Of a stretch of 64,000 nucleotides of DNA, positions 2,389 through 47,941 are shown one piece after another. Below the pieces are notes generated by a model. It searched no databases. It was not told where the DNA came from and saw only the letters and a list, made by a program, of their open reading frames with translations. Each line of letters opens with the position of its first letter. The stretch's first letter is position 1. The position numbers and the translations under genes are program-made. This DNA is from a virus, in IMG/VR virus record IMGVR_UViG_3300032236_000803, positions 27,191 through 91,190 of that record. One strand, 5' to 3'.

Positions 2389-5208
2389 ATGGCAGAAGTA
2401 AAAATTACGCAGTTAAGTTCAGCATATTTTAACGCTAATACGGCTAACACCGTATTTCTAGTCGTTGATCTACCCACAGACATTACTGGGCAGATGACTG
2501 GTACTTCTTTAGCCAAAGGATTATATTCAAATAATCCGCTAAACGTTGGTAACAATCAAATATTATTCGCAAATACTATTGCTCAATTTTCGGGTAATAG
2601 TAATACGTTTATGCAACTTAATATTCAGAATTTCCAATCAAATGGATCTTCTGATGTTGTATTGACTTCAGATACCGGAACAAACGCCAACAATTACGTA
2701 GATTTGGGTATTAATAACTCAACGTTTAATGATCCAAATTATTCAGCAATGGGTGCTCTTGATGGTTATTTGTACGTTGCCGGTCCAAATGGAGGCTCCA
2801 ATCAAGCTAATCTTATGATTGGTACTGCTTCGTATGGAGCAAACATTAATTTCGTTGCTGGCGGTACTACTATTAATGATATAGTTGCAGTATTTAACGA
2901 AGATGTTATTACTTTTAACGAACCTACTATAATTAATCAGGCTCCAGTTGATCCTGATGATACCAGTTATGTTGCGTTACAAGTTAACAACTATGGTAAC
3001 GGTTATTCATTTGTTGTAAATGATGATGTTAATGATTATTCTCCATTCGCTATTGATCAAAGCGGTAACGTTTCGATTGGAGCGGTATCTGCGAATGGGT
3101 ATAAATTATTAGTAGTTGGTAATACATATATTTCCGGAAACGTAGTAACTGCCAATAATTTCGTTTTATCTGATGGGTCGTTTGCTGCGTCAAATAATTA
3201 TGTCAATGCTAATGATGCTTCTACATTAACTTCTGCCAAAAATTACACTAATTCGGCTAATCTTTGGTTACAAGCAAATGACTCATTGACTTTATCTACT
3301 GCCCAGGCGTTTTCTAATTCGGCTAATCTATGGTTACAAGCTAATGACGTTTTAACTTTAGCAACTGCTAAGAATTATGCTAATTCAGCAAATCTCTGGT
3401 TACAGGCAAATGACGTTTTAACTTTAGCAACTGCTAAGAATTATGCTAATTCAGCAAATCTCTGGTTACAGGCAAATGACTCATTGACTTTATCTACTGC
3501 TCAATCATATACAAATGCAGCTAATTTATTTGCTCAAAATACGTATATTGCAAAATCAAATAATTTAACTTTTAATAATGTATCCATCACTGGTAATTTA
3601 TTTGCAAATACTGTAGGAACTTCTGTTTCGGTTGATAGTATATCATCGAATAATGCAACATTTTCTAAAAATATAACCGTTCTAGGAACTTTGACTTGTA
3701 ATACGGCTCAAGGTAATGTATTCTTCGCTAATATTACAACAATAACTTCGCAAGCTAATGCAATTCAATGGGTTTCGCAACAAACCTCTCCTCCTCAGAC
3801 TTACGGTCAAATTTGGTTTTCTGCTAATGACGTTTCTTTAGTTGAAGATACTGATGTTACTAATGATAGGCCATTAATAGGTAAGGTATTATATGAAAAA
3901 GTATACAATGGTTCTGGTACAACTATTGCAGCTAATTCATGGGTAAGATTAGCTGGTGCCGTAACAAATACCGCAATTCCATATGTAGTATTAGCAGATG
4001 CTGGAAACGCGGCTAATTCATTTGTTTCTGGTTTTGTTAAAAATAGTATCGCAAATAATGCATACGGATACATTTATACGCAGGGAATTGTTAATAATTT
4101 AAATTCTTCAACATATAACGTTGGCGATATATTGTTCTTATCAACAACCCCTGGCGCATCGCAAAATACTCCTCCAACCGGAGCAAATGTTGTAATTCAG
4201 TTAGCGAAAGTTTTGAGCAATAGCTCGACAATGGGTAAATTACAAGTGAATATTTTACCTCAACCAGCTTGGGGAAAAACTTCCGGTTCCATAATCTATT
4301 CCAGTAATAATATACTTGTTTCTAGTAACACTATAACAATCAACGATTCCACACAAACATTGAATTTGAGTGGTAGTATTGTTATGAGCGGTTCAGTAAC
4401 AATGAACAACTCTACGTTTTCCGCAAATTCTGCAGCAGTTTCGATTATTGGTTCCTCTAATGGCGCAATCCAAGCACCTTCGGCAGATGGAACCATGTTA
4501 CAGATTACTGGTAAAGACGGAGTTAATGCTAAAGTAATAACGGATGCAGCAGGTGCTGGTGTTTATGCTTTATATAATGGCCGTTCTATGCGAGGAACTG
4601 CGCAAAATCCGACCGCTAGTTTGGCTGGTGATGTATTAGTACGCTTTGGCGGTACTGGATATGGTACTACCGGATTCGGACTGCTCTCTGGCGGCGCAAA
4701 AATGGATTATATTGCGTTAGAAAATTATACTGATACCTCAAAGGGAACGCAAATATTATTAGCGACTACCCCAGTTGGTTCAAACGCTTTAGTAAATGTC
4801 GTGACTTATGCTGCTAATTCAGCTACATATTCTCCTAATACAGCATTATTTGTTGCTAATACAATCCATTATAATGCAAATTATAATAACGCAAACGTAG
4901 CTCAAACAGGTACTAAAGCAACTGCGGTATATGCTAATGGACGTACTGGACAGATCACTACTGTAAATACCAATATAAACAAAGGCGCTGCAACATACTT
5001 CGTGATGTATAACACGTATATTACAAGTTCTAAAGATGTGGTCATATTGAATATATCCAGCGGAGCTAGTGTTAATTATGCATTAGCGGTAAATAACGTA
5101 ATTCCTGGAAGTTGTAATGTTGTAATAAACAATTGCGACGGTACTCCATCTGGATCTAATGCTGCAGATACGTTGACAATCAACTTCGCAATTATCAATG
5201 TAACTTAA
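2389..5208 (+). CDS. Fibre-like virion structural protein (939 aa)
   Basis: N-terminal VKITQL motif typical of phage fibres, a 22-aa helical repeat block, Asn/Thr/Ser-rich beta segments, and position between the gp7-like gene and gp8. Confidence 0.6.
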   Translation: MAEVKITQLSSAYFNANTANTVFLVVDLPTDITGQMTGTSLAKGLYSNNPLNVGNNQILFANTIAQFSGNSNTFMQLNIQNFQSNGSSDVVLTSDTGTNANNYVDLGINNSTFNDPNYSAMGALDGYLYVAGPNGGSNQANLMIGTASYGANINFVAGGTTINDIVAVFNEDVITFNEPTIINQAPVDPDDTSYVALQVNNYGNGYSFVVNDDVNDYSPFAIDQSGNVSIGAVSANGYKLLVVGNTYISGNVVTANNFVLSDGSFAASNNYVNANDASTLTSAKNYTNSANLWLQANDSLTLSTAQAFSNSANLWLQANDVLTLATAKNYANSANLWLQANDVLTLATAKNYANSANLWLQANDSLTLSTAQSYTNAANLFAQNTYIAKSNNLTFNNVSITGNLFANTVGTSVSVDSISSNNATFSKNITVLGTLTCNTAQGNVFFANITTITSQANAIQWVSQQTSPPQTYGQIWFSANDVSLVEDTDVTNDRPLIGKVLYEKVYNGSGTTIAANSWVRLAGAVTNTAIPYVVLADAGNAANSFVSGFVKNSIANNAYGYIYTQGIVNNLNSSTYNVGDILFLSTTPGASQNTPPTGANVVIQLAKVLSNSSTMGKLQVNILPQPAWGKTSGSIIYSSNNILVSSNTITINDSTQTLNLSGSIVMSGSVTMNNSTFSANSAAVSIIGSSNGAIQAPSADGTMLQITGKDGVNAKVITDAAGAGVYALYNGRSMRGTAQNPTASLAGDVLVRFGGTGYGTTGFGLLSGGAKMDYIALENYTDTSKGTQILLATTPVGSNALVNVVTYAANSATYSPNTALFVANTIHYNANYNNANVAQTGTKATAVYANGRTGQITTVNTNINKGAATYFVMYNTYITSSKDVVILNISSGASVNYALAVNNVIPGSCNVVINNCDGTPSGSNAADTLTINFAIINVT
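3250..3520 (+). repeat. 66-nt (22-aa) tandem coding repeat NSANLWLQANDxLTLxTAxxYx, 4 copies
   Basis: Copies start at 3250, 3316, 3382 and 3448. Confidence 0.9.
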
Positions 5209-9600: not shown

Positions 9601-12600
9601 TAGGACAAGTTGAATACTATACTTCATTGTCTGCTTTAGAGCAATCAGCAACCGGAATGCAAATCACTGACGCGTTTGGATTAAATAGATTCAAAAACGG
9701 TATTTTGACTGATGATTTTTCAAGTTTCTCTACTGCAGATACTGTTAATTCAGATTACAATGCAGCAATTAATAAGAGAACTCGTCAAATGTCTGCGCCA
9801 CAGACAGTACAAAATTTCCCACTTAAAAACCTTGCATTAGTATACAATGATTCATCTCCTTCTGCGAGTTTAATTGCGTCGTTGAATTATAAGATTTCCA
9901 AAGATGGATCAATTAATTATTTTAGTTTACCTTATACTTCAGCAAATCTCGTAGTTCAACAGATTGCTAGTAGGGTAACTAATATCAACCCCTTCTCAGT
10001 ATCGTCATCTGTAGGAACTATATCTTTAACTCCTAATGTTGATACTTGGGTTGATACGAAATATGCTCCATCTCTGTTAATTACAGATCCATCTCTGCAG
10101 GTATTCAGACAGTCTAATAGCATTAATGTTTTAAGCGTTGGTGATTGGCAAACTATTTCCGGAACAACCTATCTATCAGGTTCTTCTTCATCATCATCTT
10201 CGTCTACCAGCTATGATTTAAATCACAATTGGACTGTTGATAGAGGGTTTGGTTTAGGCGTTGGTACTCAAACTACCACAACTACTACGTCTACGACAGA
10301 TACATATACAACAGTATTACAACAGCAACAGAATAATATTCTGGGACCATACAGCAGTATCAACAACACGTACTCATTAAATAATGGTTATATTACAGAC
10401 GTTAGTGTTGCTGCTTGGATTAGACCACAGGAAGTTGCGTTTAGAACTACTGGATTATTATTTAATTCTTATGTATCCAATTTCTTTGATAATACGAATG
10501 TTGATAACTATATCCGTAAACCAAATATCATTGAATTAACCAATGTCAGCGGCACTTTCAATCCTTTTGATATTATAGGATATCCAGTTAGCGGAGGATT
10601 TATTTCTACTGCTAAGATTTTGGATGTATATCCGCATCCCGGCACTAACAATGTTAGGTTATATGTTGCTGCTGATGGATATTCTTCTTTATATACCAAC
10701 GGTACTGTAATTTATAAAGGAACATTTGACGCTAGTGGAAACTGGATATTAACTTCAAGTACGCCACAGGGAACAATTTCAGTTTCTCAACATTTTGGCG
10801 GAGTTGTTCATAGTAATGCTAATTCAGCAACAAACATGGTACAATTGTCTTCTGTTGCTCCTGTTGTTACTAACTATTACGGAACAGATAGTTCAAATAC
10901 CATTTACATTCTATCCGGTACTGGCGCGGGACAATCTGCTAATATTGTTTCATATAATGCTGCGTCTAAAATGGTTACAATTTCTCCTTCTATTTACACA
11001 AAATACGGAGACATGTATTCCATTGGAAAGACAAAAGGAACTACTATAACTTCGTTTAAAGTTAATGAAGAAGGTAATTATTCTGGTGTTTTTGTTATTC
11101 CTAATGGCCAATTCCATACTGGACAAAGAGTATTTTCTGTTGATAACAGAATTAACAATGACGCGACCACAATAACAACTAGTGCCCAATCAGTATTTTA
11201 TGCAGAAGGGTTACAAACAACTGCTCAGAAATTGAATTTTGGCGCATCACCTGCTGGGGCAGCTGGAACATTTACGCAAACCAATTATCAAACAGTTTCG
11301 TTTACTACGACATCTAGTTCGTCGTCTAGTTCGTCTTCAACGTCTGCTTGGGATCCATTAGCGCAGACGTTTATTATAGATCCAACGAATTATCCTAATG
11401 GAGCGTTTTTAAGTTCTCTGAAAGTGTTTTTCTCATCAGCACCTACAAGCGATACGTCTACTGTTACTTTGTCTATTGTAGGAACTCTGAACGGATATCC
11501 TAACGGAGATGTTCTGGATCACTCTATTGTTACTTTGAAACCTTCTCAAGTTAATACTTCGCAGAATCCGCAATATCTTGATTCTACGACTTATACTGAG
11601 TTTGTTTTCTCTGCACCAGTTTATATTGCTTCTGGTACTTTATATGCGTTTATTTTGAAATCAAATTCAAATGAATATAAATTATGGACTGCTGCAAACG
11701 GTGATACTGCGATCCCGTCATCTGTTAAGAATTATCCAACAGACCCAACGCCAACTAACATAACTAAAATCACTACAGCACCTTATGTTGGTGGATTGTT
11801 CATATCACAGAATGCACAGACTTGGACTGCTGATCAAAATCAAAGTTTAATGTTTGTTATTAATCGTTGCGTATTTGATACAACCCAAAATCCGTTAATA
11901 AGAATGGTTGTTCCTCAAATGTTGCCTGGTAGAACTTTGATTGAACAAAGCGTTAATTATTTGAATAACGCCAATTCAATAGCAAATACAGTAGCAACAT
12001 ACTCAGCTAACAACGTTCTTGTTGATGCGTTTAATTTGACGACAACGGATTTTATTCCTACTGCCACTCAGATAAATTATGGATATCAAGCAACATTGGC
12101 TTCGTCTTTTGCTGCTACTGGAATACAAAACATTAATCCGGGTAGATACGGTACTAGTATTTTCGATCACATTTATCTTAATGATAACAATGGTGAAAGA
12201 GTGTTGATTTCTAATACATCAACTTCATTCTCTATGTATGCACAGTTAAGTTCAACTGATGATAAAGTGAGTCCAATTCTTTCTGATGCTGGATCAACTG
12301 TCTACACTATAACCTATAATATCAATAATTGTCCTTTATCAAATAGTTTAATTACTATTGCTAATGGCGGTAGCGGTTACAACGTGAATACAACAAGCGT
12401 ATCAATTTCTTCTCCTACAGGAAAGAACGGTTCGCAAGCATATGCCACTGCTAATATAGCAAATGGGTCAATTAACCGTATTGATATAATTGTTCCAGGT
12501 TCTGGTTATATTACTACGCCAACAATAACAATTACTGACGCTAATTCTTCGCCTGGTAATGGCGCTTCTGTTATAATTACTGGCGAAACTTCCGTACACG

Positions 12601-13266: not shown

Positions 13267-16021
13267 CTTTACTCCAGCGCAACAATTTAATATTCTCAAC
13301 TATGCCAATACGTTTGGTGATTGGGTAGTAACAACTAACGCTTTAGTTCTGCAAAATAACGATCTTGCTGCTAATAACTTTACTAAAGCATCAGGAACGC
13401 TTTATCTTTCTGATCCATCTCTTGCTTTGCAAGCTAATACTGCTTCAATTTTCCAGAGTTCTGTACAGGTTATCGGCGTTGGTTCATATGCTTATATACA
13501 GAACAATTTAACTGTTGGTGCTCCGGGTACAACCAGTAACGGACAAGTATATTTAAATTATCTTGGTGCTGGTCCTGCGCTAACTTCATACGGTTCTATT
13601 TTCGCAGACGGGGCAAACACAGGACTTCTTGTAGCGAATACCGCAAATATTGGCGGTAAATTATACGTATCTAATACTGCATCGTTTTCTAATACAGTAA
13701 CAATATATGGTACTGCATACGTTGCGAATAATCTATTCTCTTCTAATACGGTATATGCCGATAAAATCCAAGGCAATACCAGCGTAAATACTTTAGTATT
13801 AACTGCGCTGACTGAAGTTTATACTAATCTGTTGCAGTCTAATACTGCTGTAAGTACGAATTACCTAGTTTCTGATAGAGTTCAAGCTAATACAAGCGTA
13901 ACAACAACTAGTGTTTATGCGTCTAATAGCGTAACTGCAATGACTGTATCTGCTGTAAGTAATGTATTTACAAATTCTATACAATCTAACAGCAGCATTA
14001 ATACAACCAATTCTATTGCAAATGTTGTACAAGCTAATTCGTATGTAAATACTGCTACATTAATAGCAACAAGTAATGTCTTCACTAATACATTACAAGC
14101 AAATGTTTCAGTTAATACTGCATCAGTTTATGCTAACAATATTCAAGCTAATACCATAAGTACGCTTGCGTTCATTGCAAACACTATACAATCGAATACT
14201 TCTGTTAATACTGCATCATTGACTGTAACTGGTATTGCTACTATCGGTAATGTAATGACTAATATTGTTACTGCAAACTCAGCGGTAATTGGGGCTGGTG
14301 GATTAACAATTGGCGGTAATTTCGTAATAAGTGGCGCAACAGTTTTCAATTCTCCTACTTTTACAATAAGCGCAAACAGTCCAAATCCTCCTGTAATATT
14401 AAATCCTGGATATGCTGTTTATAGATCAACCGCTAATGCTTTAATCCGTTGGAATGAAGCTAATACTTATTGGGATATGAACGATGTCAATAGCGGAGCA
14501 TTCTATAGAGTATTAACTGACAAATATTTAAGTAATTCTGGCGTATTGAATAGTTCTGGGAATGTTGCAACTTCTTCTGCGTTATATTATGCTAATAATT
14601 GGTTACAGGCAAACGATTCATTAACTTTATCTAATGCTGTAGCTTACGCAAACGCAGCTAATCTTTGGTTACAGGCAAATGACTCATTGACATTGGCAAC
14701 TGCCCAAACGTTTTCAAGTAATGCCAATAACATAACTTCTGGTATTTTATCTTTAACACGATTACCTACTTCTGGCGTTGTTGCTGGCGTTTATGGTAAT
14801 ACTGTTAGTATACCTACTGTTACGGTTGACCAATACGGAAGAGTAACTGCAGTAAGTAATAACGCAGTATCAACCACGATCAATTTAGCAGGTTCTATTG
14901 GAACTGGATCTGTTGCTGGCGGCGGGACATTAACTTTATCATCTTCTAATACAGCAATAACTAATGTAACTGCCTCTGGATCTACGTTAACAATTAATCC
15001 TCAATTATCAGGAGTTGTTTCAGGATCATATGGTAATGCTACGACTATACCAACAATTACAGTTGATCAATATGGTAGAGTTTTATCAGTTGCAAATAAT
15101 GCAGTATCAACCACGATCAATTTAACAGGTAATTCTGGAACTGGTTCTGTTGCTGGTGGTAATACTTTAATACTAAGTTCATCAAATTCTTCAGTAACAA
15201 ATGTAGCTGCTTCCGGAAATACGTTAACAATAAATCCGCAATTATCTGGTGTTACTCCCGGTTCGTATATAATATCTAGTATAACTGTTGACCAATATGG
15301 TCGCGTAACTAGCGCAAGTTCTGGATCTGTTGCTGGCGTAAGTATAAACAATGATACTACATCAGCTTATACTTTCTATCCTTTATTATCGCTTACTACT
15401 ACTGGAAGTTTGGCAACAACCAATACTTCAAGTACGAAGTTATCGTTTACTCCGTCCACAGGTATATTATCTGCAACAGGATTTTCTGGATCGGGAGCAG
15501 GGTTAACAGGAACTGGTATTAATTTCACAGCCAATACTGTGGCTAATATCACAGGAACTCAAGTTACTAATGCTCTTGGATATACTCCTTATAATTCAAG
15601 CAATCCAAATGGATATCTTGCAAATACTTCATCTGCTTCATTTTCAGGGTTAGCTGTAACTGGACAAACTACTTCAACAAAAGGCTACAGAGAAGGTGTG
15701 GTTGCAGTCGGTACAGTAACAGGAGCAACCAATTTAGATTTATCGCAAGGAAATATATTTACAATTACGTTGGGCGCAAGCGGTGTAGCATTTACATTCA
15801 CAAATCCTCCGGCATCTGGCGTTGCTTGTACAATAACGTTGATAATAACACAAGACGGTACTGGATCTAGAACGTTTGGATCAATTACTGGTTCTGTTTG
15901 GACAGATGGTAATAAACCAGTTTTAACAACCACTGCTAGTAAAACGGATATGTTATCATTAATGACTGTTAATGGCGGCAGTACTTATTATGGCTCATTC
16001 GCAGGAGCAAATTTCGGATAA
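13259..16021 (+). CDS. Tail fibre protein (920 aa)
   Basis: N-terminal NTFGDWVVTTN baseplate-attachment-like motif, three GxYxxxxxTVDQYGRV fibre repeats, and a C-terminal beta-sandwich (LDLSQGNIFTITL...TQDGTGSRT...KTDMLSL). Confidence 0.75.
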   Translation: MSNFTPAQQFNILNYANTFGDWVVTTNALVLQNNDLAANNFTKASGTLYLSDPSLALQANTASIFQSSVQVIGVGSYAYIQNNLTVGAPGTTSNGQVYLNYLGAGPALTSYGSIFADGANTGLLVANTANIGGKLYVSNTASFSNTVTIYGTAYVANNLFSSNTVYADKIQGNTSVNTLVLTALTEVYTNLLQSNTAVSTNYLVSDRVQANTSVTTTSVYASNSVTAMTVSAVSNVFTNSIQSNSSINTTNSIANVVQANSYVNTATLIATSNVFTNTLQANVSVNTASVYANNIQANTISTLAFIANTIQSNTSVNTASLTVTGIATIGNVMTNIVTANSAVIGAGGLTIGGNFVISGATVFNSPTFTISANSPNPPVILNPGYAVYRSTANALIRWNEANTYWDMNDVNSGAFYRVLTDKYLSNSGVLNSSGNVATSSALYYANNWLQANDSLTLSNAVAYANAANLWLQANDSLTLATAQTFSSNANNITSGILSLTRLPTSGVVAGVYGNTVSIPTVTVDQYGRVTAVSNNAVSTTINLAGSIGTGSVAGGGTLTLSSSNTAITNVTASGSTLTINPQLSGVVSGSYGNATTIPTITVDQYGRVLSVANNAVSTTINLTGNSGTGSVAGGNTLILSSSNSSVTNVAASGNTLTINPQLSGVTPGSYIISSITVDQYGRVTSASSGSVAGVSINNDTTSAYTFYPLLSLTTTGSLATTNTSSTKLSFTPSTGILSATGFSGSGAGLTGTGINFTANTVANITGTQVTNALGYTPYNSSNPNGYLANTSSASFSGLAVTGQTTSTKGYREGVVAVGTVTGATNLDLSQGNIFTITLGASGVAFTFTNPPASGVACTITLIITQDGTGSRTFGSITGSVWTDGNKPVLTTTASKTDMLSLMTVNGGSTYYGSFAGANFG
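14770..15330 (+). repeat. Three tail-fibre repeats (SGVxxGxY...TVDQYGRV)
   Basis: Seen in translation and DNA (gttgaccaatacgga / gttgatcaatatggt / gttgaccaatatggt). Confidence 0.8.
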
Positions 16022-16047
16022 TATATACTTTTATTTTATGGTATAGT

Positions 16048-17625
16048 ATGAAGAATCAAGTAGAATCTATTTTGATAGTGGGTGGAGGCAGCTCTGGTTG
16101 GATGACTGGAGCTGCTTTAGTAAAACATTTACCAAATGTTAAAATTTCTTTGGTTGAATCTCCTGATATTAAAACAATAGGAGTTGGAGAAAGTACGTTA
16201 GGACACATAAATGAATTTTTTCATTTTTTAGGATTGCGAGATGAGGATTGGATGAAGCATTGTAATGCTACATACAAAACTTCAATTAAGTTTACTGATT
16301 TTAGAGACAACCCAAAAGATAAACCTTATGTGTTTCATTATCCGTTTGGGCTTTGGGACTTAACAGACAAACCAAATGGGTTAATGGATTGGTTTGATTA
16401 TAAAGCAAAATATCCAGAAACTCCCTGTGAAAATTTCGCAGAATTTTATCATGACGCAGTATTAATGACTGATCATAATAAAATGACATATAACCAAAAT
16501 GGCGCAATAAGGAATTTTAATCCATTCAATGATGTGGCTTATCATATGAATGCTGCGTTATTTGGTGAGTATTTAAGAGATTACGTTTGTAAGCCAAATG
16601 GTTTAAATCATATATTGGCTACAGTTAAAGGCGCCAGTAAAGACGAATCCGGATGTATTTCAAAGATACATACAGATAAAGGGGATTTAACTGCCGATCT
16701 CTATATAGATTGTACTGGATTCAAATCATTTCTATTAGAAGAAATTATGGGAATTCAGTTTGAATCTTTTGATGACTTATTAATGAATGATAGAGCTATA
16801 GCAGCTCCTATTCAATACATTGATAAAAATAAAGAAATGGAATGTGTTACCAATTGTACTGCCATTGAAAATGGATGGGTATGGAATACCCCTTTATGGG
16901 ATAGGATTGGAACTGGGTATGTTTATTCCAGTCAATTTGTATCAGATGATGATGCGTTAGGACAGTTTAAAAAACATTTGAAGTCGAATCGTATGATTTG
17001 TCAAAATGATGCTAGAATAGATACAGCGGAATTTAGGCAACTTAAAATCAGACATGGTAAACACGAAAAGGCTTGGGAGAAAAATGTTGTTGCAGTAGGG
17101 TTATCAAATGGTTTTGTTGAACCTTTAGAATCAACAGGATTATTGATGACTCATGAAGCAATTATAAAATTAGTAAACATTTTAAAGGCAAGAAATAATT
17201 ATTATAATAAACTTGATGTTGATAGTTTTAATTTTTCTTTAAATAACCAAATAGATGGATTTAAAAATTTTATAGCTTTACATTATGCATTAAGTAAAAG
17301 GGATGACACGGAATATTGGAGACACGTCACGAATAATATTTCGTATAAAAATACAGGAATATTTGAATTTTTTTCGCATTCAATGATCAATTCTAGACGG
17401 TTTGCATCTAATGTAACTGAAGGATTATTTTATATAGCAGCTGGTATGGGATACAATCCTACTGATAGTAGTAGATTAGATTTTCATAACATGGTATATA
17501 ATGATGATCCATATATTCCAGAAAAAGTTATGGATGAATGGTTAAAACATAAAAGACTCGTTATGAAAATTATTGATAGACTACCTACTCATTATGAATT
17601 TTTGAAGAACAATATATATAAATAA
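16048..17625 (+). CDS. Flavin-dependent tryptophan-halogenase-family protein
   Basis: FAD-binding IVGGGSSG, IGVGEST, putative catalytic Lys in NATYKTSIKF, YIDCTGF, the WxWxIP-like GWVWNTP, and GFVEPLESTG. Confidence 0.9.
   Translation: MKNQVESILIVGGGSSGWMTGAALVKHLPNVKISLVESPDIKTIGVGESTLGHINEFFHFLGLRDEDWMKHCNATYKTSIKFTDFRDNPKDKPYVFHYPFGLWDLTDKPNGLMDWFDYKAKYPETPCENFAEFYHDAVLMTDHNKMTYNQNGAIRNFNPFNDVAYHMNAALFGEYLRDYVCKPNGLNHILATVKGASKDESGCISKIHTDKGDLTADLYIDCTGFKSFLLEEIMGIQFESFDDLLMNDRAIAAPIQYIDKNKEMECVTNCTAIENGWVWNTPLWDRIGTGYVYSSQFVSDDDALGQFKKHLKSNRMICQNDARIDTAEFRQLKIRHGKHEKAWEKNVVAVGLSNGFVEPLESTGLLMTHEAIIKLVNILKARNNYYNKLDVDSFNFSLNNQIDGFKNFIALHYALSKRDDTEYWRHVTNNISYKNTGIFEFFSHSMINSRRFASNVTEGLFYIAAGMGYNPTDSSRLDFHNMVYNDDPYIPEKVMDEWLKHKRLVMKIIDRLPTHYEFLKNNIYK
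17617..17624 (+). promoter_or_regulatory. T4-type late promoter TATAAATA
   Basis: Exact consensus overlapping the halogenase stop codon, 34 nt before the next ATG. Confidence 0.7.
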
Positions 17626-17657
17626 TTAAAGATAACATTTTATAAGGGTTTGTAAAG

Positions 17658-17960
17658 ATGAAACAAAACATTTTCCTATTTCATAGATTTGACAAACATG
17701 CGTCAGATCATTTTAACATTAAAAACGTTATATTAAGAAATAAGAATATCCAAGTTCAAACTAGAGGTTATGGAACAGAAGCATCTTGGTCTGAATTTGT
17801 CAGTTCATTTATTACTTCTTATAGCAAAATCATACTTGAAAATAACATTAAAATAGACCCTAATTTTGATGGATTTATTTTAATGTACGATGATACTATT
17901 TTAGAACAAAGAGTCATTTTAACTGATCTCAACGCAATAATCGCAGAATTATCAAGCTAA
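17658..17960 (+). CDS. Hypothetical protein (100 aa)
   Basis: ORF fills the gap between the late promoter and the Gly-rich gene, with an AAGGG SD-like sequence upstream. Confidence 0.7.
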   Translation: MKQNIFLFHRFDKHASDHFNIKNVILRNKNIQVQTRGYGTEASWSEFVSSFITSYSKIILENNIKIDPNFDGFILMYDDTILEQRVILTDLNAIIAELSS

Positions 17961-17964
17961 AACT

Positions 17965-19320
17965 ATGCCAGGGTTTTTCAGAACATTAGCTCCAGCAGGA
18001 TCGCAGACGCATAATTCTGGTACATCCGGTTCATGGGCAGCACCGTTTCGCGTAAGAACCGTTAATATTTCAGTATTAGGCCAACCGGGAAATTCAGGTA
18101 ATCCTGGAAATCCTGGAAATGGCGGATCAGGAGGAAGCGCAGGTAATCCTGGAAATTCAGGTAATCCTGGAAGCCAAGGTAATTCTGGAAATCCAGGAGG
18201 ACATGCTGGTGGCGGCGGTGGCGGCGGTGGCGGTGGCGGTGGTGTAGCGCACGTTGTAGTTAGAAATTACCCATATGGTAATTGTAGGGCTACTAATTCT
18301 ATAGGACAAATTAGTGGAAATTACGGGTGTGGTTCTGGCGGGCACTGCAGTAATGCTCCATATGGCGGAGGATGGGGAGGTAGCGGAGCGTCACACCAAG
18401 GCCAAGGGAACAATTTCGGATGTTACGGAAAAGCTGGTGTGGGCGGTTCTGGCGGAAGCCACGGAAGAGCAGGAACTTTTTGCAGCAATTGTCATTCTCA
18501 CTGCGGATTTAGTGGAAATCCAGGGACTGGCGGTCAACCAGGTGCTGCTGGTAATTCGGGAAATTACGGAGCTAGTGGGTCTAATGGTAATAGCGGTAAT
18601 GGAGGAGGATCAGGAAATCCAGGTAATGCAGGATCAGCAGGATCAACAGGAAATAGAGGAGCCAACACTAGTTTTAATATAGTAAATCAGACATATGTTG
18701 GTAGCGGGGGTTCTGGAGGTTCAGCAGGAAACGCAGGCAATCCTGGAAATGCAGGCAATCCAGGTTATGCTGGAAACGGCGGTTCTGCTGGAAACGGAGG
18801 CGCTGGAGGAAACGGAGGCAGCGGAGGATACAGCGTAACAGGAAATGCTGGCGGTGGCGGTAGTGGCATTGGCTTTCCTGGTAATCCAGGCCAACAAGGA
18901 GGAAGTATTAATGGAAACTGGGGAGGCGGTGGACACGCAAATGCTGGCGTATCTTGGAATTCTGGTTCTGGCGGCGGAAGTGGCGGTGCTGGTGGACATG
19001 CTGGCGCAGGTATATGGTGTTTTCTTTATGGAAATGGACTTAACGCAGGTGGTACTGGCGGTCCAGGCGGTGCTGGCGGTGCTGGTGGGGGAACTTATGG
19101 TAATGGAGGTAACGGAGGTTCGCCAGGTAATTCAGGTTCAGGAGGAAATCCAGGAGGAGCTGGTTCTAACGGAAATGCTGGATCTGGAGCAGGTTCAGGA
19201 GGAAGCGGAAGCCCTGCATCAACATCTAATTATGGTTCACAAAATATAACATACAGAGTAGCCTACCCATATAGCGTAGCGCCATCTGGTTCAGTAACAA
19301 TAAGTTGGAGTAGACAATAA
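17965..19320 (+). CDS. Glycine-rich (Gly-X-X / polyglycine II) adhesin-like protein with Cys/His-rich inserts
   Basis: Long GNP/GNS/GSA/GNG triplet runs, a G12 run, 8 Cys, and beta-strand-like termini (SGSWAAPFRVRTVNISVLG ... YSVAPSGSVTISW). Locally GC-richer than the window. Confidence 0.7.
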   Translation: MPGFFRTLAPAGSQTHNSGTSGSWAAPFRVRTVNISVLGQPGNSGNPGNPGNGGSGGSAGNPGNSGNPGSQGNSGNPGGHAGGGGGGGGGGGGVAHVVVRNYPYGNCRATNSIGQISGNYGCGSGGHCSNAPYGGGWGGSGASHQGQGNNFGCYGKAGVGGSGGSHGRAGTFCSNCHSHCGFSGNPGTGGQPGAAGNSGNYGASGSNGNSGNGGGSGNPGNAGSAGSTGNRGANTSFNIVNQTYVGSGGSGGSAGNAGNPGNAGNPGYAGNGGSAGNGGAGGNGGSGGYSVTGNAGGGGSGIGFPGNPGQQGGSINGNWGGGGHANAGVSWNSGSGGGSGGAGGHAGAGIWCFLYGNGLNAGGTGGPGGAGGAGGGTYGNGGNGGSPGNSGSGGNPGGAGSNGNAGSGAGSGGSGSPASTSNYGSQNITYRVAYPYSVAPSGSVTISWSRQ

Positions 19321-19745
19321 TGACAGAAGATAATTACAGTTATACGTATCAAGTAACAGGAACTAATATAGAAACTGGAACTTTTGTAGTAGAATATATG
19401 CCAGTTAGCACAAATCTAACACCAATCAGCGTTAATTTACAATTAATTCCTTTATATTATACAGATATTGTTGACGCTAACAATGCTCCCATATATACAT
19501 CTCAAGATGCAATCCCATTTGAATTACACCTAGAAAGCACTATTAATAGATATGCTCCTCTTATTCAATGGAGGAATCAATATATGATGAGCGATAACAT
19601 TTCTAATATTGAATCAGCAAATGGAGCATTTAATCTTAGCGCAAATACTGTTTCTTATCCAAGCGGATTAACTGTGGTAAGAAATCCTAACGATGTAATA
19701 TTTTCAACAGCATACAGTATTAAAGTTGTGGAATCTTCTAATTAA
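19320..19745 (+). CDS. Hypothetical protein, possible fibre/adhesin assembly partner
   Basis: Translationally coupled (TAATG) to the Gly-rich gene. Confidence 0.6.
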   Translation: MTEDNYSYTYQVTGTNIETGTFVVEYMPVSTNLTPISVNLQLIPLYYTDIVDANNAPIYTSQDAIPFELHLESTINRYAPLIQWRNQYMMSDNISNIESANGAFNLSANTVSYPSGLTVVRNPNDVIFSTAYSIKVVESSN

Positions 19746-19760
19746 TTATAAAACAAATTT

Positions 19761-20357
19761 ATGAAATTGAGTACTATTCGTATTGAAGATTCATTCTGTT
19801 CTTGGAATGATTTATTTACTGAAGATGAAATTGATGAAATAGTAAAATATTGCGAAGAAGCACCTAGAATAGACGGTCAAATAGGTGCTGGTGCTGGTGA
19901 AAAATTAGATATTGATATAAGAAAATCAAAAGTTTCTTTTATTGAAAGAAACGAAGAAAATAATTGGTTTTTTTCTAGAATACAAGCAGCAAGTAATAAG
20001 TTAAATTCAAAATTTTTTGGATTTGACATCGAAGTTTTAAATACTATGCAATACACTGTTTATGATGAAGAAGGCAGTCATTATGATTGGCATTGGGATA
20101 TATACACAGGAAACGCTTTAAATAATTTAGAAGATATTAAACAAAGAAAACTTACATCCGTTTTACAATTAGATAATCCTGATGATTATGAAGAAGGATT
20201 TCTTCAATTGAATTCTTGCGGTACAATATCAGAAGTTGATCGTAAAAAAGGATATATGGTTTGTTTTCCGTCTTTTCTTGTGCACAGAGTTACTCCAGTG
20301 AAATCTGGAAAAAGAAGAACTTTGGTTGCTTGGTTTAATGGTCCTGATTGGAGATAG
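19761..20357 (+). CDS. 2OG-Fe(II) oxygenase, prolyl-4-hydroxylase/PKHD-like
   Basis: HxD motif (YDWHWD), RKLTSVLQL, FPSFLVHRVTPV and distal Arg (RRTLVAW). Confidence 0.9.
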   Translation: MKLSTIRIEDSFCSWNDLFTEDEIDEIVKYCEEAPRIDGQIGAGAGEKLDIDIRKSKVSFIERNEENNWFFSRIQAASNKLNSKFFGFDIEVLNTMQYTVYDEEGSHYDWHWDIYTGNALNNLEDIKQRKLTSVLQLDNPDDYEEGFLQLNSCGTISEVDRKKGYMVCFPSFLVHRVTPVKSGKRRTLVAWFNGPDWR

Positions 20358-20359
20358 TA

Positions 20360-20962
20360 ATGATTGATGAATATTATGGTTATCCTGAAGATTTTATAAG
20401 AGCATATCCTAAAGCAGTTAGTAGAGAATTTTGTAGGGGTATGATTGATTATTTTGAATGGTGTAATAAAAACAATAGAACATTCAAAAGAACTGAAGCT
20501 ACCAAATTGTTCAAGGATGATGAATCTTGTACAGTCCAACCTTTGGACTATTGGGATATTACATTTTCTAATGACAATCTTGGAGGATATGTTCAAGAAT
20601 TTAATAATTCTTTTTGGAATGAATGTTGGCCTTCGTATATTTCTGAAGTAGATATTCTAAGACAAATAAATAGCTGTACAATTTTTTCATATAAAATACA
20701 GAAAACTATACCTTCTGGCGGTTATCATGTATGGCATTTTGAACAGTCAGAAAGACATTCAAGAAGAATTGCTGCATATGTTCTTTATTTAAATGATGTT
20801 CCTGAGGGTGGTGAAACGGAATTTCTTTATCAACAAAAGAGAATTCCTCCAAGTGAAGGTACATTAGTTATTTTTCCAGCATCATATACGCATACGCATA
20901 GAGGAAATCCACCACTACGTGGAGTCAAATATATTATGACTGGTTGGATTGAATACGGATAA
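20360..20962 (+). CDS. 2OG-Fe(II) oxygenase
   Basis: HxE motif (YHVWHFE), YLND..EGGETEF, HTHRGNPP, KYIMTGW. ATG at 20360 is preferred over the TTG at 20348 that overlaps the upstream gene. Confidence 0.9.
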   Translation: MIDEYYGYPEDFIRAYPKAVSREFCRGMIDYFEWCNKNNRTFKRTEATKLFKDDESCTVQPLDYWDITFSNDNLGGYVQEFNNSFWNECWPSYISEVDILRQINSCTIFSYKIQKTIPSGGYHVWHFEQSERHSRRIAAYVLYLNDVPEGGETEFLYQQKRIPPSEGTLVIFPASYTHTHRGNPPLRGVKYIMTGWIEYG

Positions 20963-20966
20963 ATAG

Positions 20967-20989
20967 AAACCCTCGAAAGAGGGTTTTTT
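20967..20989 (+). terminator. Rho-independent terminator
   Basis: AAACCCTC-GAAA-GAGGGTTT stem with GNRA loop followed by a T tract. Confidence 0.9.
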
Positions 20990-20995
20990 AATAAA

Positions 20996-21003
20996 TATAA
21001 ATA
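20996..21003 (+). promoter_or_regulatory. T4-type late promoter TATAAATA
   Basis: Exact consensus just after the terminator and upstream of the AGGA SD and the ATG at 21032. Confidence 0.85.
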
Positions 21004-37475: not shown

Positions 37476-38417
37476 ATGCTAACATTAACTAAGTTACCAG
37501 TAGTAACATCCCTTAACGAAGCATCGACATTCTATATGTCGATGCAACCTTCGGGGATACAATCAACAAATGATATCTACTCAAATCAAAATGTATATTA
37601 TTATGCAAATAATGGTGTAGGGACTTTTAATGTTAATGGAACTATAAACGCTTCTTCTGTATTGGTTAATGGTGCACCATTAACCGCTTCTGGAGGAAGC
37701 AGCGGTCCAACAGTCACTGTCACAGCAACTAATGGATTATATTCTATTGGTAATTTCACTGGATCGTATACGGACGGTATAGTTGTTGATTACGTAACTG
37801 GTAATGGCAGAATTTCAGTTGGCCCAGCTGATGGATTGACAATTTATAATGGCGGCGTTGCTAATACTGCATTAGTTACAATTACAAATACTGGTAATTT
37901 TAGTATAGGAACAGCAAGTAATACGTACGCGTTGAATGTTGGCGGTACAGCAAACGTTGGAGCATTATTAATTAATGGAGCACCTCTTTCGGTAGGCGCT
38001 ACGATTACTGATGATACGTCAACTAATGCAACCAGATATATTATGTTAGGTTCTGCAACTTCTGGTACATATTCAGCTGCAAATACTTCATCTTCTAAAT
38101 TGTATTTTAATCCAAGTACAGGTACAACATATTCAACTGTTTTTCAATCATTATCTGATGAAACGCAGAAGACAAATGTTGAACCTATTGTTAATGCAAC
38201 CGATACTCTTAAACAGATTATTGGATATGAATTCGATTGGAAAGATAACGGTTTAAAATCTGCTGGCGTTATTGCTCAGCAATTAGAGAAGATATTACCT
38301 TGGTTAGTCTCTGAAACTGATGGAATTAAAAGCGTCAACTATGCAGGTTTACTTGCGTATCTCATACAATCTAATAAGGAATTAGCAGATAGAATAGAGA
38401 AGTTGGAGAGTAAGTAA
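37476..38417 (+). CDS. Tail fibre with C-terminal intramolecular chaperone (Peptidase S74) domain
   Basis: SLSDETQKTNVEPI...FDWK...GVIAQQLEKILPWLV...VNYAGLLAYLIQSNKEL plus terminal coiled coil. Confidence 0.85.
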   Translation: MLTLTKLPVVTSLNEASTFYMSMQPSGIQSTNDIYSNQNVYYYANNGVGTFNVNGTINASSVLVNGAPLTASGGSSGPTVTVTATNGLYSIGNFTGSYTDGIVVDYVTGNGRISVGPADGLTIYNGGVANTALVTITNTGNFSIGTASNTYALNVGGTANVGALLINGAPLSVGATITDDTSTNATRYIMLGSATSGTYSAANTSSSKLYFNPSTGTTYSTVFQSLSDETQKTNVEPIVNATDTLKQIIGYEFDWKDNGLKSAGVIAQQLEKILPWLVSETDGIKSVNYAGLLAYLIQSNKELADRIEKLESK

Positions 38418-39637
38418 TGGCTACTGGTAATCCTAGTAATTATTGGAAAGATGATCCAATATTTGGAAGTATTGATCTAGATGATGAATATATTACCGAC
38501 CAATGGTTAGTTGATCAGTTTGTTGGGAATAATTTATTTACTTGGGGAAACGACAACCTTGGTCAACTAGGTAATGGAGTGCCCTCAGTAACCGCTTTAT
38601 CGTATTCGTCTCCAATTCAAGTAGGATCATTAACTAATTGGAAACAAGTTGCTGCGGGGGATTCACATACATCAGCAATTAAAACTGATGGTACATTATG
38701 GACATGGGGATGGAATAATTTTGGACAATTAGGTAATGGAACAACAGTATATTATTCATCTCCCATTCAAGTTGGATCATTAACCAATTGGAAACAAGTT
38801 TCCGCCGGATATATTATTACATCAGCAATCAAAACAGATGGAACATTATGGACATGGGGATTGAATCAATATGGTGAATTAGGTAATGGAACAGCAACGC
38901 CTTATTCATCTCCGATTCAAGTAGGTTCTTTGACTAATTGGAAACAGGTATCTTGTGGAGCAAGTACAATAGCAGCAATCAAGACCGATGGAACATTGTG
39001 GACATGGGGATGGTCTAATAATGGAGGACTGGGTAACGGAACAGCATCAGCATCGTTAAATTATTCCTCGCCACTCCAAATCGGAGCACTAACTAATTGG
39101 AAGCAAGTTAGTGCAGGAAACGCACAAACTGCAGCAATCAAAACTGACGGTACTTTATGGGTGTGGGGAAGTAATAATGGAGGACAATTAGGTAATCAGA
39201 ATATAATAAATTATTCCTCGCCAATCCAAGTAGGATCTTTGAATAATTGGAAACAGGTCAGTGTTAATGGTTCTGCTACGGCAGCTATTAAAACTGATGG
39301 TACTTTATGGACATGTGGTTATAACATTCAGATAAGCACACCAATAGGAATATTAGGTAATGGAACAGGAGTATCCTATTCATCCCCGATTCAAGTAGGA
39401 TCTTTGACTAATTGGAAAATCGTTGTATTTTCCGGTTCACAGGGCACCGCTGGAGCAATTAAAACCGATGGTACTTTATGGACATGGGGAATTAATGCAT
39501 CTGGTCAATTAGGTAATGGAACCAATTTAAGATATTCTTCTCCGATTCAAGTAGGTACATTAACTAATTGGAAACAAGTTTCCGGCGGGAACCTTGGAAT
39601 CCATCTAGCAGCAATCACATTCGCAGATATAACATAA
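38417..39637 (+). CDS. RCC1/BLIP-II repeat beta-propeller protein (7 repeats)
   Basis: Seven ~50-aa repeats TLWTWGxNxxGQLGNG...YSSPIQVGSLTNWKQV..G...AIKTDG. TAATG-coupled to the S74 fibre. Confidence 0.9.
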   Translation: MATGNPSNYWKDDPIFGSIDLDDEYITDQWLVDQFVGNNLFTWGNDNLGQLGNGVPSVTALSYSSPIQVGSLTNWKQVAAGDSHTSAIKTDGTLWTWGWNNFGQLGNGTTVYYSSPIQVGSLTNWKQVSAGYIITSAIKTDGTLWTWGLNQYGELGNGTATPYSSPIQVGSLTNWKQVSCGASTIAAIKTDGTLWTWGWSNNGGLGNGTASASLNYSSPLQIGALTNWKQVSAGNAQTAAIKTDGTLWVWGSNNGGQLGNQNIINYSSPIQVGSLNNWKQVSVNGSATAAIKTDGTLWTCGYNIQISTPIGILGNGTGVSYSSPIQVGSLTNWKIVVFSGSQGTAGAIKTDGTLWTWGINASGQLGNGTNLRYSSPIQVGTLTNWKQVSGGNLGIHLAAITFADIT

Positions 39638-39646
39638 GGAAAAATA

Positions 39647-40312
39647 ATGGCACAGTATCTTTTAGTACAAAATAAACAAATAGTACACCTTGGACCATTT
39701 AATTGGAAACAACGTTATATCCAATCAGAATTTGATGACTTACATGACCAAGGAGAAATCTCATTTCAATACCAAGTTCCACCAGTAGACAATGGTTATA
39801 TTGATGTTGGTGAAGGGTTTGAAATCTTTCCTCTTACTGCTATTATTTCTCCAGAGATCAATCCTAATTTCGATCAACCTATTGGTCCATTCTATACCTA
39901 TGATAATAATGAAGCAACTGCAACTTATGAGAAGACTGATAGAAATGTTATTGATATAAAAAATACTGTAAAAACTGTTGCTGCTTCATTGAGATATACC
40001 AAAGAGAATTCTGGAACTAAAGCAATAGTTCAAGGCATAGAAGTTAGTGTAGATACTTCCAGAGAAGGTAGAGCAATCTTTGTTCAAGCATATACCACAA
40101 TGTCCGATTCAGATGTTATTGGATGGAAATTCCCAGAATGTTGGTTGAATTTAACCAAATCCGATTTGGGCATTTGCGTTAATGCTGGAGTTACTCATGT
40201 ACAATCACAATTCGCATGGGAACAAGATATTGATACTCAGACAAATAATGCACAAACAGTTGACGAATTAAAAACCATTTATACCAGTATGTTTCCTGTT
40301 AAAGAGGAATAA
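39647..40312 (+). CDS. DUF4376-like tail fibre assembly protein
   Basis: LRYTKENSG...VDTSREGR...WKF...W.NLT..DL......HVQSQFAWE pattern. AAGGA SD. Confidence 0.65.
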   Translation: MAQYLLVQNKQIVHLGPFNWKQRYIQSEFDDLHDQGEISFQYQVPPVDNGYIDVGEGFEIFPLTAIISPEINPNFDQPIGPFYTYDNNEATATYEKTDRNVIDIKNTVKTVAASLRYTKENSGTKAIVQGIEVSVDTSREGRAIFVQAYTTMSDSDVIGWKFPECWLNLTKSDLGICVNAGVTHVQSQFAWEQDIDTQTNNAQTVDELKTIYTSMFPVKEE

Positions 40313-43300: not shown

Positions 43301-43663
43301 AATTGGAGTCAAGTTGCTTGTGGATATAGACATACATTATCAATTAAGACCGATGGCACTTTATGGACATGGGGGAATAATGCCGCAGGAGGGTTAGGTA
43401 ATGGAAAAACTACCGATTACTCCTCGCCAATCCAAATAGGTTCATTAACGAATTGGAAAAGGGTTTCTGGAGGAATATATCATTCATTATCAATCAAAAC
43501 CGATGGTACTTTATGGACATGGGGCGACAATTCACAAGGACAATTGGGCAATTCGTCAATAACGCAATCCAATTCACCTATACAGATAGGAACTCTAACT
43601 ACATGGAAACAAGTTGCTTGCGGATATAGATTCTCATCAGCAATTTCAGACGGATACATTTAA
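40316..43663 (+). CDS. RCC1 repeat protein (21 repeats, three propellers)
   Basis: Counted 14 repeats, a linker, then 7 repeats. GAGG SD. Confidence 0.9.
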   Translation: MPSNFGPYQPYTGFNTAYQTNTLWTCGYNSSGQLGNGNIVNYSSPIQVGALTNWTQVVGGLLQTAAIKTDGTLWTWGNNSYGALGNGTVNINYSSPIQVGALTNWKQVAVGDYATAAIKTDGTLWTWGQNNFGQLGNGTVNINYSSPIQVGTLTNWKQVAFGDYHVSAIKTDGTLWTCGYNTYGQLGNGTGVYYSSPIQIGSLTNWKQVGCGYGHTASIKTDGTLWTWGSNGSGQLGTISVSFNTNNSYSPVLVAGGNTWATTDPASKINVTSTSFRQSYFIGNNGTLWSCGYNRYAQLGNGTTTNYSSPIQVGTLTNWSQISGQYHTAAIKTDGTLWTWGDNIAGELGNGTTAGYSSPIQVGALTNWKQVACGFYYTTAIKTDGTLWTLGYGGYGSLGNGTTAWYSSPIQVGSLTNWKQVACGYGHTTAIKTDGTLWTCGYNNNGQLGNVTTAGYSSPIQVGALTNWSQVAAGYYHTAAIKTDGTLWTWGNNSYGALGNGTNINYSSPIQVGALTNWKQVACGQYQIAAIKTDGTLWMCGYNTGNGTNINYSSPIQVGALTNWKQVACGQWHTYAVYGDGTVWSWGDNSYGGLGAATLGNNNTSSPTQVGTLTNWTQVACRGYHTTAVKTDGTLWACGNNNYGQLGNGTTTLYSSPIQVGALTNWIQVATNQYLTSAIKTDGTLWRWGGNLWGDLGNQTTINYSSPIQVGSLTNWTQVTNVAAIQTTNYNQDLGQRYTTKSYLLDVYPNIASQIGNRTSPGLFTWGNDAYGQLGNGTTVSYSSPIQVGSLTNWKQVGCGRTNFIYFTAAIKTDGTLWTCGYNSKGQLGNGTSIKYSSPVQVGALTNWKQVDCGPSVAAIKTDGTLWTWGQNTNGAIGNGSNNVAYSSPIQVGALTNWKQVTCGQGYTAAIKTDGTLWTWGNNQFGTLGNATTVSYSSPIQVGSLTNWKQVSAGQHIAAVKTDGTLWTCGYNGKGQLGNGTTINYSSPIQVGALTNWSQVACGYRHTLSIKTDGTLWTWGNNAAGGLGNGKTTDYSSPIQIGSLTNWKRVSGGIYHSLSIKTDGTLWTWGDNSQGQLGNSSITQSNSPIQIGTLTTWKQVACGYRFSSAISDGYI

Positions 43664-43667
43664 AAAC

Positions 43668-47940: not shown

Positions 47941-47941
47941 T

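Follow-up and report, generated by a model that had tools for sequence, protein, structure and literature searches.

Genes for tryptophan halogenases and 2-oxoglutarate (2OG)-Fe(II) oxygenases have been listed among the 'auxiliary metabolic genes' (AMGs) of cyanophages since ~2005, their substrate being unknown (PMC2984593, PMC3037559). The roles published for these phage genes are in nitrogen stress and 2OG, DNA repair and antibiotic functions (PMC3037559, PMC2984593). The halogenase VirX1 of cyanophage Syn10 (PDB 6qgm) forms a trimer whose active site is large and accessible, halogenates many small aromatics in vitro and serves as a biocatalyst; its natural role and substrate are unknown, and small molecules alone have been discussed as candidates (PMC8407142). 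Among structural proteins, the glycine-rich (Gly-rich) domains of Pam3 gp24 build cyanophage fibre tips, and a chaperone gene, gp25, lies downstream (7ypx; PMC9608196). In the literature searched, no paper combining phage, halogenase or prolyl-4-hydroxylase (P4H), and tail fibre proposes a fibre substrate. Here we describe a six-gene cassette in a 64,000-nucleotide stretch (positions 27,191 to 91,190 of IMG/VR record IMGVR_UViG_3300032236_000803; 'the window'), in which a VirX1-type halogenase and two 2OG-Fe(II) oxygenases flank a Gly-rich protein. Halogenases of this clade lie within 8 kb of Gly-rich genes in all but one of the phage lineages examined, a link that appears to be unpublished. 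The cassette is tentatively read as a late-expressed module that tailors a fibre tip, a possibility we put somewhat short of probable.

The six genes are all on the plus strand and tightly packed (Table 1). The overall order is fibre, halogenase, late promoter, 100-aa protein, Gly-rich protein, 141-aa protein, two oxygenases, terminator, late promoter, LtfC-like protein and fibre. A sequence-only reading of this DNA by a model had placed the same six open reading frames (ORFs) behind a tail fibre and closed them with one terminator; all six are present as described, the fibre-like gene precedes them, and the terminator is a good plus-strand hairpin with a T-run, but the cassette start given there, 15690, falls inside the fibre gene. 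Because a T4-type late promoter motif and this terminator frame them, the last five genes are predicted to form one late unit. The promoter word TATAAATA has nine plus-strand copies in the window, eight of them just upstream of gene starts. Within the unit the gaps are as short as 4 nt before the Gly-rich gene and 15 nt before that of oxygenase A, the TAA stop of the Gly-rich gene and the ATG of the 141-aa ORF overlap as TAATG, and oxygenase B either overlaps the end of oxygenase A (TTG start) or follows it after 2 nt (ATG start). The layout is conserved in an IMG/VR contig (L009) with a 62% identical halogenase, where fibre, halogenase, 100-aa, Gly-rich and 141-aa proteins, oxygenases A and B and LtfC-like protein follow in the same order, a homologue of the 920-aa fibre stands in the matching place upstream of the halogenase, and the promoter word occurs at both equivalent sites (11573-11580 and 14636). 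The fibre assignment of the 920-aa protein comes from its C-terminal 105-160 aa, which match phrog_7760 and phrog_9017 'tail fiber protein' (E ~3e-12). This C-terminal part also carries a cluster of natural variants at 15811-15838 (8 nt, 2 aa changes; two freshwater studies).

Table 1. The cassette and its surroundings in the window (aa, amino acids; nt, nucleotides)
Feature	Position	Strand	Remarks
Tail-fibre-like protein, 920 aa	13259..16021	+	Directly upstream of halogenase, 26-nt gap
Flavin-dependent halogenase, VirX1 clade, 525 aa	16048..17625	+	Pfam PF04820, phrog_2928
T4-type late promoter motif TATAAATA	17617..17624	+	33 nt ahead of 100-aa ORF, within the 3' end of the halogenase gene
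Conserved 100-aa protein	17658..17960	+	Possible thioredoxin/KaiB-like fold without Cys
Gly-rich protein, 451 aa	17965..19320	+	Four Gly-X-Y runs; conserved N- and C-terminal strands
Hypervariable patch of Gly-rich protein, residues 302-336	18868..18971	+	Non-repeat loop with Trp and His; varies in natural populations
141-aa protein	19320..19745	+	Candidate partner/chaperone; TAATG overlap
Oxygenase A, PiuC/YbiX (PKHD)-like, 198 aa	19761..20357	+	PF13640, 51.8 bits
Oxygenase B, P4H-like, 204 aa	20348..20962	+	PF13640, 54.0 bits; start TTG 20348 or perhaps ATG 20360
Intrinsic terminator	20967..20990	+	8-bp GC-containing stem, GAAA loop, T-run; hairpin 20967-20986
Next late promoter motif	20996..21003	+	After terminator, before LtfC-like gene; starts following unit
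LtfC-like protein, 112 aa	start 21032	+	phrog_3304 'L-shaped tail fiber protein assembly', E 1e-16
Fibre protein, 1516 aa			Downstream of LtfC-like gene, in the following unit

The halogenase matches Pfam PF04820 (Trp_halogenase; E 2e-105) and phrog_2928 (E 5e-154), and aligns with VirX1 over its full length (E 7e-140). Its flavin adenine dinucleotide (FAD)-binding motif GGGSSG (GxGxxG; residues 12-17) aligns with those of VirX1 and Th-Hal, and both NATYK, with the catalytic Lys, and FVEPLESTG, with the EPLES Glu, align column for column with VirX1, in which the catalytic Lys is K79 (PMC8407142). The sequence-only reading had called the motifs intact, which holds for the FAD motif, the Lys and the Glu but less well for WxWxIP: here the window enzyme has GWVWNTPL, with both Trp and the Pro kept and Ile replaced by Thr, where VirX1 has GWVWNIPL. 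Like the window gene, the genes of Syn10 and Syn9 lie near Gly-rich fibre genes, at a distance of 1.5-4 kb. Unlike it, they belong to cyanophages, whereas the window phage comes from a freshwater, non-cyanophage-like lineage of T4 relatives, and identity to its match in the Syn10 genome is 44.6%. Matches to the protein-modifying flavoenzymes LodB and QhpG (NCBIfam) were weak, confined to the FAD-binding end and far below cut-offs, and were not used.

For the comparison with other phages the VirX1 clade was defined by at least 39% identity to the window halogenase, a Gly-rich ORF by a Gly fraction of at least 0.18 and the neighbourhood as 8 kb, and loci were counted only if they had enough flank. 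Within this distance halogenases of the clade have between one and four Gly-rich ORFs (Gly 0.18-0.37) at every examined locus except that of S-B64. Such neighbours occur in the window, at 11 IMG/VR loci and in eight isolates (S-CREM1, Syn9, S-RIM44, P-TIM40, P-RSM6, S-WAM1, S-SZBM1 and Sf-CH11), and in the tested cyanophages the Gly-rich neighbours are Pfam Gly_rich_2 (PF21722) proteins. Control loci with distant halogenases or with 2OG genes only (~165 kb) have Gly-rich ORFs at none of ten. The distant halogenases (at most 30% identity, plus one at 37%) are found among AMGs, beside ribonucleotide reductase (RNR) genes or between terminase genes, with no Gly-rich neighbour. A halogenase scaffold from a human-faecal 'Bacteriophage sp.' was excluded as it looks bacterial (high GC, 1083-aa ORF upstream). 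The gp38-type Gly_rich_2 protein of Syn9 and its chaperone-like gp40 occur in an identical set of 20 of 50,697 phage records, all 20 of which carry a halogenase of the clade; of the ~430 other cyanomyovirus records with the 2OG family, none has the gp38-type protein or the chaperone-like neighbour. The co-occurrence that the sequence-only reading had proposed to check thus exists for the halogenase, which is tied to Gly-rich genes by position, by presence and absence and by alternative cassettes. The genomic link is weaker for the hydroxylases, as the 2OG family is scattered over cyanophage genomes and for the most part distant from Gly-rich genes.

Five gene orders were found around halogenases of the clade. 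Besides the order shared by the window and L009, these are: fibre, several Gly-rich genes, chaperone-like gene, one or two halogenases and a 2OG array; several Gly-rich genes, chaperone-like gene, 414-aa protein and halogenase; halogenases and 2OG genes divergent from Gly-rich genes on the opposite strand (L020); and, in Sf-CH11, Gly-rich, 2OG, 2OG, halogenase, 2OG, 2OG and Gly-rich. The 414-aa protein is Cys-rich (3773-5017 in locus L010, 8760-10004 in both L017 and L018), has no Pfam family and matches phrog_1458 (unknown function). It is conserved in one group of IMG/VR phages and might represent an additional tailoring enzyme. Cassettes of the Syn9 type always have a protein of 235-290 aa (phrog_7084, unknown function) after the halogenase or halogenases and before the 2OG array (8574-9362 in L002, with equivalents in L001, L003 and L004).

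When phages are compared by gp13, carriers of the module are intermingled with non-carriers, and among S-RIM44/Syn1 isolates whose gp13 is at least 99.6% identical the halogenase is gained or lost together with the Gly-rich fibre genes. The 197-kb S-RIM44 genomes (L003, NC_047734) have the fibre, three Gly_rich_2 genes, the chaperone-like gene, two halogenases and a 2OG array. In the genomes of 191-193 kb (L036/L037; S-RIM44 KX349295 and Syn1) the fibre end is instead non-homologous and the tip protein, of 294 aa, is not rich in Gly; these genomes also have a 121-aa gene and only one 2OG gene, which is PhyH-like, and lack the VirX1-type halogenase. A distant halogenase elsewhere in the genome is kept by all these isolates. 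The two non-homologous cassettes lie upstream of gp13 and span at least 13 kb each, including the end of the giant fibre gene; each has a tip protein, a small chaperone-like gene and one or more oxygenases of its own. Cyanophage halogenases form two families (records Syn1, S-RIM44, S-PM2, S-MbCM6 and P-SSM2): the VirX1-clade type occurs only with Gly-rich tip genes, and the 25-30%-identical type, in AMG or nucleotide-metabolism regions, occurs regardless of them.

The Gly-rich protein of the window contains 36% Gly, 13% Ser, 12% Asn and 5% Pro, and neither Asp nor Glu. Its four Gly-X-Y runs keep register over 14, 18, 15 and 11 triplets. Gly follows 17 of the 24 Pro residues (binomial P 5e-4), in 11 of these 17 cases as Asn-Pro-Gly, and every Pro within the runs is in the Y position, i.e. 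X-Pro-Gly. The 6 Trp, 15 Tyr, 10 His and 8 Cys are mostly outside the runs, so that the earlier description of a protein rich in Asn-Pro-Gly with Trp, Tyr and His in its non-repeat loops is borne out. The Pfam Collagen model (PF01391) scores 26.6 bits, below its cut-off of 27.2, and a two-sequence profile of the window and L009 proteins matches collagens (E 1e-6) through periodicity alone. The composition is not of a kind expected to stabilise a triple helix, with Pro only in Y and many GGG, GSG, GNG and GGS triplets; because so many X and Y positions are Gly and charged residues are missing, a stable classical triple helix is disfavoured. Judged by composition and by the published Pam3 structure, the Gly-X-Y stretches are more likely to form a polyglycine-II lattice of the Gly-rich-domain type (PMC9608196).

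Conservation of this protein is concentrated at its ends. The L009 homologue (368 aa) is syntenic and 48% identical, and metagenome fragments keep the first ~35 and last ~20 residues. The AlphaFold2 (AF2) model has a mean predicted local distance difference test score (pLDDT) of 46 and reaches confidence only at residues 11-70 and 431-450, predicted to be paired strands; the Gly-rich core is under 50. A wide fold search returned no row above Z 4.0 (Pam3 fibre, Z 3.9) and assigned no fold, and hhalign against Gly_rich_2 aligned only the 21-residue N-terminal entry strand, weakly (probability 4.6%). The Gly_rich_2 profile had no match among PDB sequences, and phage records likewise gave none in tblastn with the Gly-rich protein as query. 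Nothing scored in a word-indexed protein search, in which Gly-rich words swamped the candidates, and an exhaustive search of representatives brought up nothing beyond short pieces of either terminus and generic collagen-like proteins. With Pam3 gp24/gp25, S16 gp38 and PF21722 proteins (PMC9608196) the window protein would share a Gly-rich domain framed by modelled beta strands, distal loops that vary, and a small gene immediately downstream; its long strict Gly-X-Y and Asn-Pro-Gly runs set it apart. In natural populations one non-repeat loop stands out: contigs from two freshwater studies, of low depth, differ from the window in the hypervariable patch by 18 nt, giving 10 aa changes including W319Q, and per contig piece the differences elsewhere are at most 16, mostly 0-3, reaching 20 in only two pieces, both over the patch. 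Such a pattern would be expected of a receptor-contact loop.

The start of the 141-aa gene overlaps the stop of the Gly-rich gene and therefore suggests a partner or chaperone of the Gly-rich protein, by analogy with Pam3 gp25 (PMC9608196). Three homologues were found (55-97% identity), the one in L009 being syntenic; a pattern scan of IMG/VR gave no locus, and neither the AF2 model (pLDDT 39, unusable) nor its Atlas neighbours were informative as to fold. The eight homologues of the 100-aa protein are all exactly 100 aa long and 55-73% identical, again with a syntenic one in L009, and two of the eight are on contigs that match in size those with 141-aa homologues. An Atlas model of this protein (pLDDT 0.57) has template modelling (TM) scores of 0.5-0.6 to viral thioredoxin clusters, a structural lead at most.

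Both oxygenases match PF13640 (2OG-FeII_Oxy_3; gathering cut-off 27 bits) and have the His-x-Asp/Glu...His triad with a basic 2OG-binding residue ~10 residues past the distal His. The sequence-only reading had assigned them to different subtypes, HxD and HxE, and the motifs agree. Oxygenase A (H111-x-D113, H175, R185) has PiuC (9ghl, 9qn1; E 8e-6) as its nearest solved relatives; His111 and His175 are invariant among its homologues, the closer of which also retain Asp113 and Arg185. The HxD...H...R motifs align with those of the PiuC/YbiX PKHD hydroxylases (9ghl, 9qn1, 3dkq), but the match covers 87 residues at an E of only ~1e-5 and NCBIfam scores are far below cut-offs. We know of no defined substrate for bacterial PiuC/YbiX proteins. 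They have been linked to iron uptake (PMC12004947). A further, weakly 2OG-oxygenase-like ORF (218 aa) lies upstream of the window in the early/middle-gene part of the contig (G000:C1:11782-12438) and is related to oxygenase A by jackhmmer at E 8e-6.

The nearest solved relatives of oxygenase B are the collagen P4H of Bacillus anthracis (3itq, 5hv0; E 7e-7), then other P4Hs and LH3. His130-x-Glu132, His182/His184, Arg185 and Lys194 are invariant among its homologues. With collagen-type P4Hs (3itq/5hv0; 5c5t; LH3) it shares the double-stranded beta-helix core, the His-x-acid...His triad and, 10 residues beyond the distal His, a Lys; its operon also encodes a Gly-X-Y protein in which Pro occupies the Y position. 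However, the match spans only ~76 C-terminal residues, the acid of the triad is Glu instead of Asp, and the putative substrate is improbable as a classical collagen. These relatives, and the confinement of every run Pro to X-Pro-Gly, lend support to the earlier idea that X-Pro-Gly sites might be hydroxylated. Hydroxylation of Asn, suggested alongside it, is without family-level support because neither oxygenase is AspH- or FIH-like. A complex prediction for oxygenase B and residues 30-100 of the Gly-rich protein returned no answer (score 0.00), which speaks neither for nor against binding. By their motifs, the halogenase and both oxygenases look catalytically competent. A similar pairing exists in mimivirus with its collagen hydroxylase/glycosyltransferase, where one virus encodes a Gly-X-Y structural protein and an oxygenase that could modify it; unlike the window phage, mimivirus is a giant eukaryotic virus with lysyl hydroxylation and is not known to have a halogenase.

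The linkage points to a protein substrate, although it does not prove modification. For the tailoring module proposed here we infer a virion location of the Gly-rich protein, an enzyme-substrate relationship and the following chemistry. In this scheme the Gly-rich protein would serve as an adhesin-like or distal fibre component, a candidate for the 'receptor-binding tip', with its N- and C-terminal strands forming a small beta domain, and the 141-aa protein would act as its partner or chaperone. The flanking enzymes would modify either the Gly-rich protein or fibre proteins next to it, acting post-translationally, before the fibre is assembled or while it is. Oxygenase B may hydroxylate the Pro of the recurrent X-Pro-Gly sites, most of which are Asn-Pro-Gly, the halogenase, given the large open active site of its homologue VirX1, may halogenate exposed aromatic or His side chains, and the PiuC-like oxygenase A may add further hydroxylation. 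Published observations fit this reading: 14 of the 20 genes mutated during host adaptation of S-TIM4 are particle-associated, mostly tail-fibre or baseplate parts, and a 2OG gene is among the six others (PMC6224464); purified S-SCSM2R virions contain an Ofd1-like 2OG oxygenase (PMC12801897); and the work on VirX1 is compatible as well. Extending the proposal to aquatic T4-like phages at large, such that VirX1-type halogenases and at least part of the 2OG arrays have Gly-rich receptor-binding fibre tips as their natural substrate, is doubtful.

Several observations weigh against the proposed tailoring. The halogenase gene lies upstream of the five-gene late promoter, 26 nt behind the fibre gene, and is outside the promoter-to-terminator unit. 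The window Gly-rich protein gave no Pfam match to PF21722 (Gly_rich_2) at E 0.01 and is without the N-terminal fibre-attachment domain of the cyanophage proteins, and its Trp24 and Trp319 are not conserved. Halide is low in fresh water, and enzymes of the P4H type also act on translation factors and ribosomal proteins. A Pseudomonas P4H-type enzyme solved with EF-Tu (4iw3) is among the weak matches of oxygenase B, whose family is known from 457 phage records, in most of which it neighbours capsid, UvsW or primase genes and is away from Gly-rich genes. The halogenase of S-B64 (42% identical) follows gp46 in the replication module, with no Gly-rich gene in its neighbourhood. The region from the fibre to gp13 is a known plastic slot, the co-occurrence is significant per record (Fisher P 5e-30) but the records are not independent events, and because contiguous genes co-transfer by recombination neither the co-occurrence nor the contrast between alternative cassettes requires a functional link. 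The enzymes could be accessory (AMG or host-takeover) genes in a recombination-prone fibre region, with the halogenase acting on a free aromatic metabolite, the oxygenases acting on small molecules or host proteins (e.g. translation factors) or merely consuming 2OG, and the Gly-rich linkage arising from joint transfer of adjacent DNA and from a slot that tolerates insertions. We consider this the main rival, a real possibility if somewhat doubtful. It is favoured by the capsid, recombination and replication contexts of the 2OG family, by the distant halogenases among AMGs or beside RNR genes, by the position in S-B64 away from any fibre gene, by the range of small aromatics that VirX1 takes (PMC8407142) and by the published readings, which extend to antibiotic synthesis (PMC3037559, PMC2984593). 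It accounts less well for a clade that stays beside Gly-rich genes across five gene orders, for the Gly-rich family, chaperone-like protein and halogenase in exactly the same 20 records, and for enzymes interleaved with structural genes behind a late promoter in the window and L009; profile scans of the cassette proteins found no partner genes of a small-molecule pathway.

A functional link could also exist with the Gly-rich protein itself unmodified, as a co-adapted adhesin of one host-range cassette, the enzymes acting on the large fibres, on RCC1-repeat proteins or, at adsorption or exit, on the host surface or receptor. The exchange of the whole block, including the giant fibre gene, between near-identical S-RIM44/Syn1 isolates is in keeping with this, and a 2OG oxygenase is also found in the alternative cassette with the non-Gly tip and, as the Ofd1-like enzyme, in virions (PMC12801897). 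The halogenase, however, tracks the Gly-rich family specifically and is missing from the alternative cassette, and X-Pro-Gly sites are concentrated in the Gly-rich protein, so we regard other targets as improbable. Lastly, tailoring-type enzymes adjoining a repetitive ORF recall the pathways of ribosomally synthesised and post-translationally modified peptides (RiPPs), some of which include peptidyl halogenases, and the sequence-only reading had called the system RiPP-like. That the ORF is a true precursor, its tailored product being cleaved off and released as a peptide, is highly improbable: the ORF has 451 aa in a late structural gene context, its conserved termini are modelled as the paired strands of a folded domain, and the cassette proteins revealed no leader/core layout, no RiPP recognition element (RRE)- or PqqD-like domain, no protease or peptidase and no exporter.

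The linkage names a candidate substrate class, the Gly-rich fibre-tip proteins, and brings a substrate question of twenty years' standing within reach of direct tests on cultured phages; natural test material exists in Syn9, S-CREM1 and P-TIM40 and in S-RIM44 isolates that have or lack the module. If fibre tips are indeed tailored, this would be the first halogenated viral structural protein, post-translational tailoring would join the ways in which phages diversify or harden receptor-binding proteins, and host range or stability would be tuned enzymatically by functions that travel with the adhesin as one swappable cassette. A share of the genes now called AMGs would then shift to virion morphogenesis. 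If they are not, the linkage still marks a mobile host-range cassette with cargo in need of explanation.

The window makes up the right-hand 64 kb of a contig of 91 kb, itself estimated as ~55% complete, and its baseplate, fibre, neck, terminase, sheath, tube and portal genes are those of a T4-superfamily myovirus. Its tail sheath is at most 40-43% identical to those of isolates, the best matches being phages of Stenotrophomonas, Rhizobium, Pelagibacter, Methylophilales and Caulobacter, and several freshwater metagenome studies hold contigs near-identical to the window. Because of this divergence, the matches to phages of Proteobacteria and the freshwater contigs, the phage is not a typical marine cyanophage, and a cyanomyovirus identity was dropped. 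Its sequence places it as an uncultured freshwater T4-superfamily myovirus of a non-cyanophage-like lineage. A megablast of the cassette against phage records returned no match.

Further genes lie in the fibre region downstream of the cassette. Three proteins of RCC1 repeats (beta-propeller), with RCC1/WD40_RLD Pfam E-values down to 1e-224, are encoded at 38417-39637, 40316-43663 and 44174-47119 (406, 1115 and 981 aa), with a 186-aa ORF without assignment at 43614-44174 between two of them. Other parts of this region are a 313-aa protein with a Peptidase_S74 intramolecular-chaperone domain (37476-38417) and a 221-aa DUF4376 protein (39647-40312) that matches phrog_10508 'tail fiber protein'. 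Between the fibre region and the neck genes lies a block of tailoring-type enzymes (47167-53431), which comprises a sulfotransferase (47167-47940), two methyltransferases (49347-50476), two unknowns and a minus-strand Rossmann-type ORF (52592-53431) that is NAD-dependent epimerase-like in its N-terminal motif only. In cyanophages it is the slot immediately upstream of gp13 that holds the halogenase/2OG arrays.

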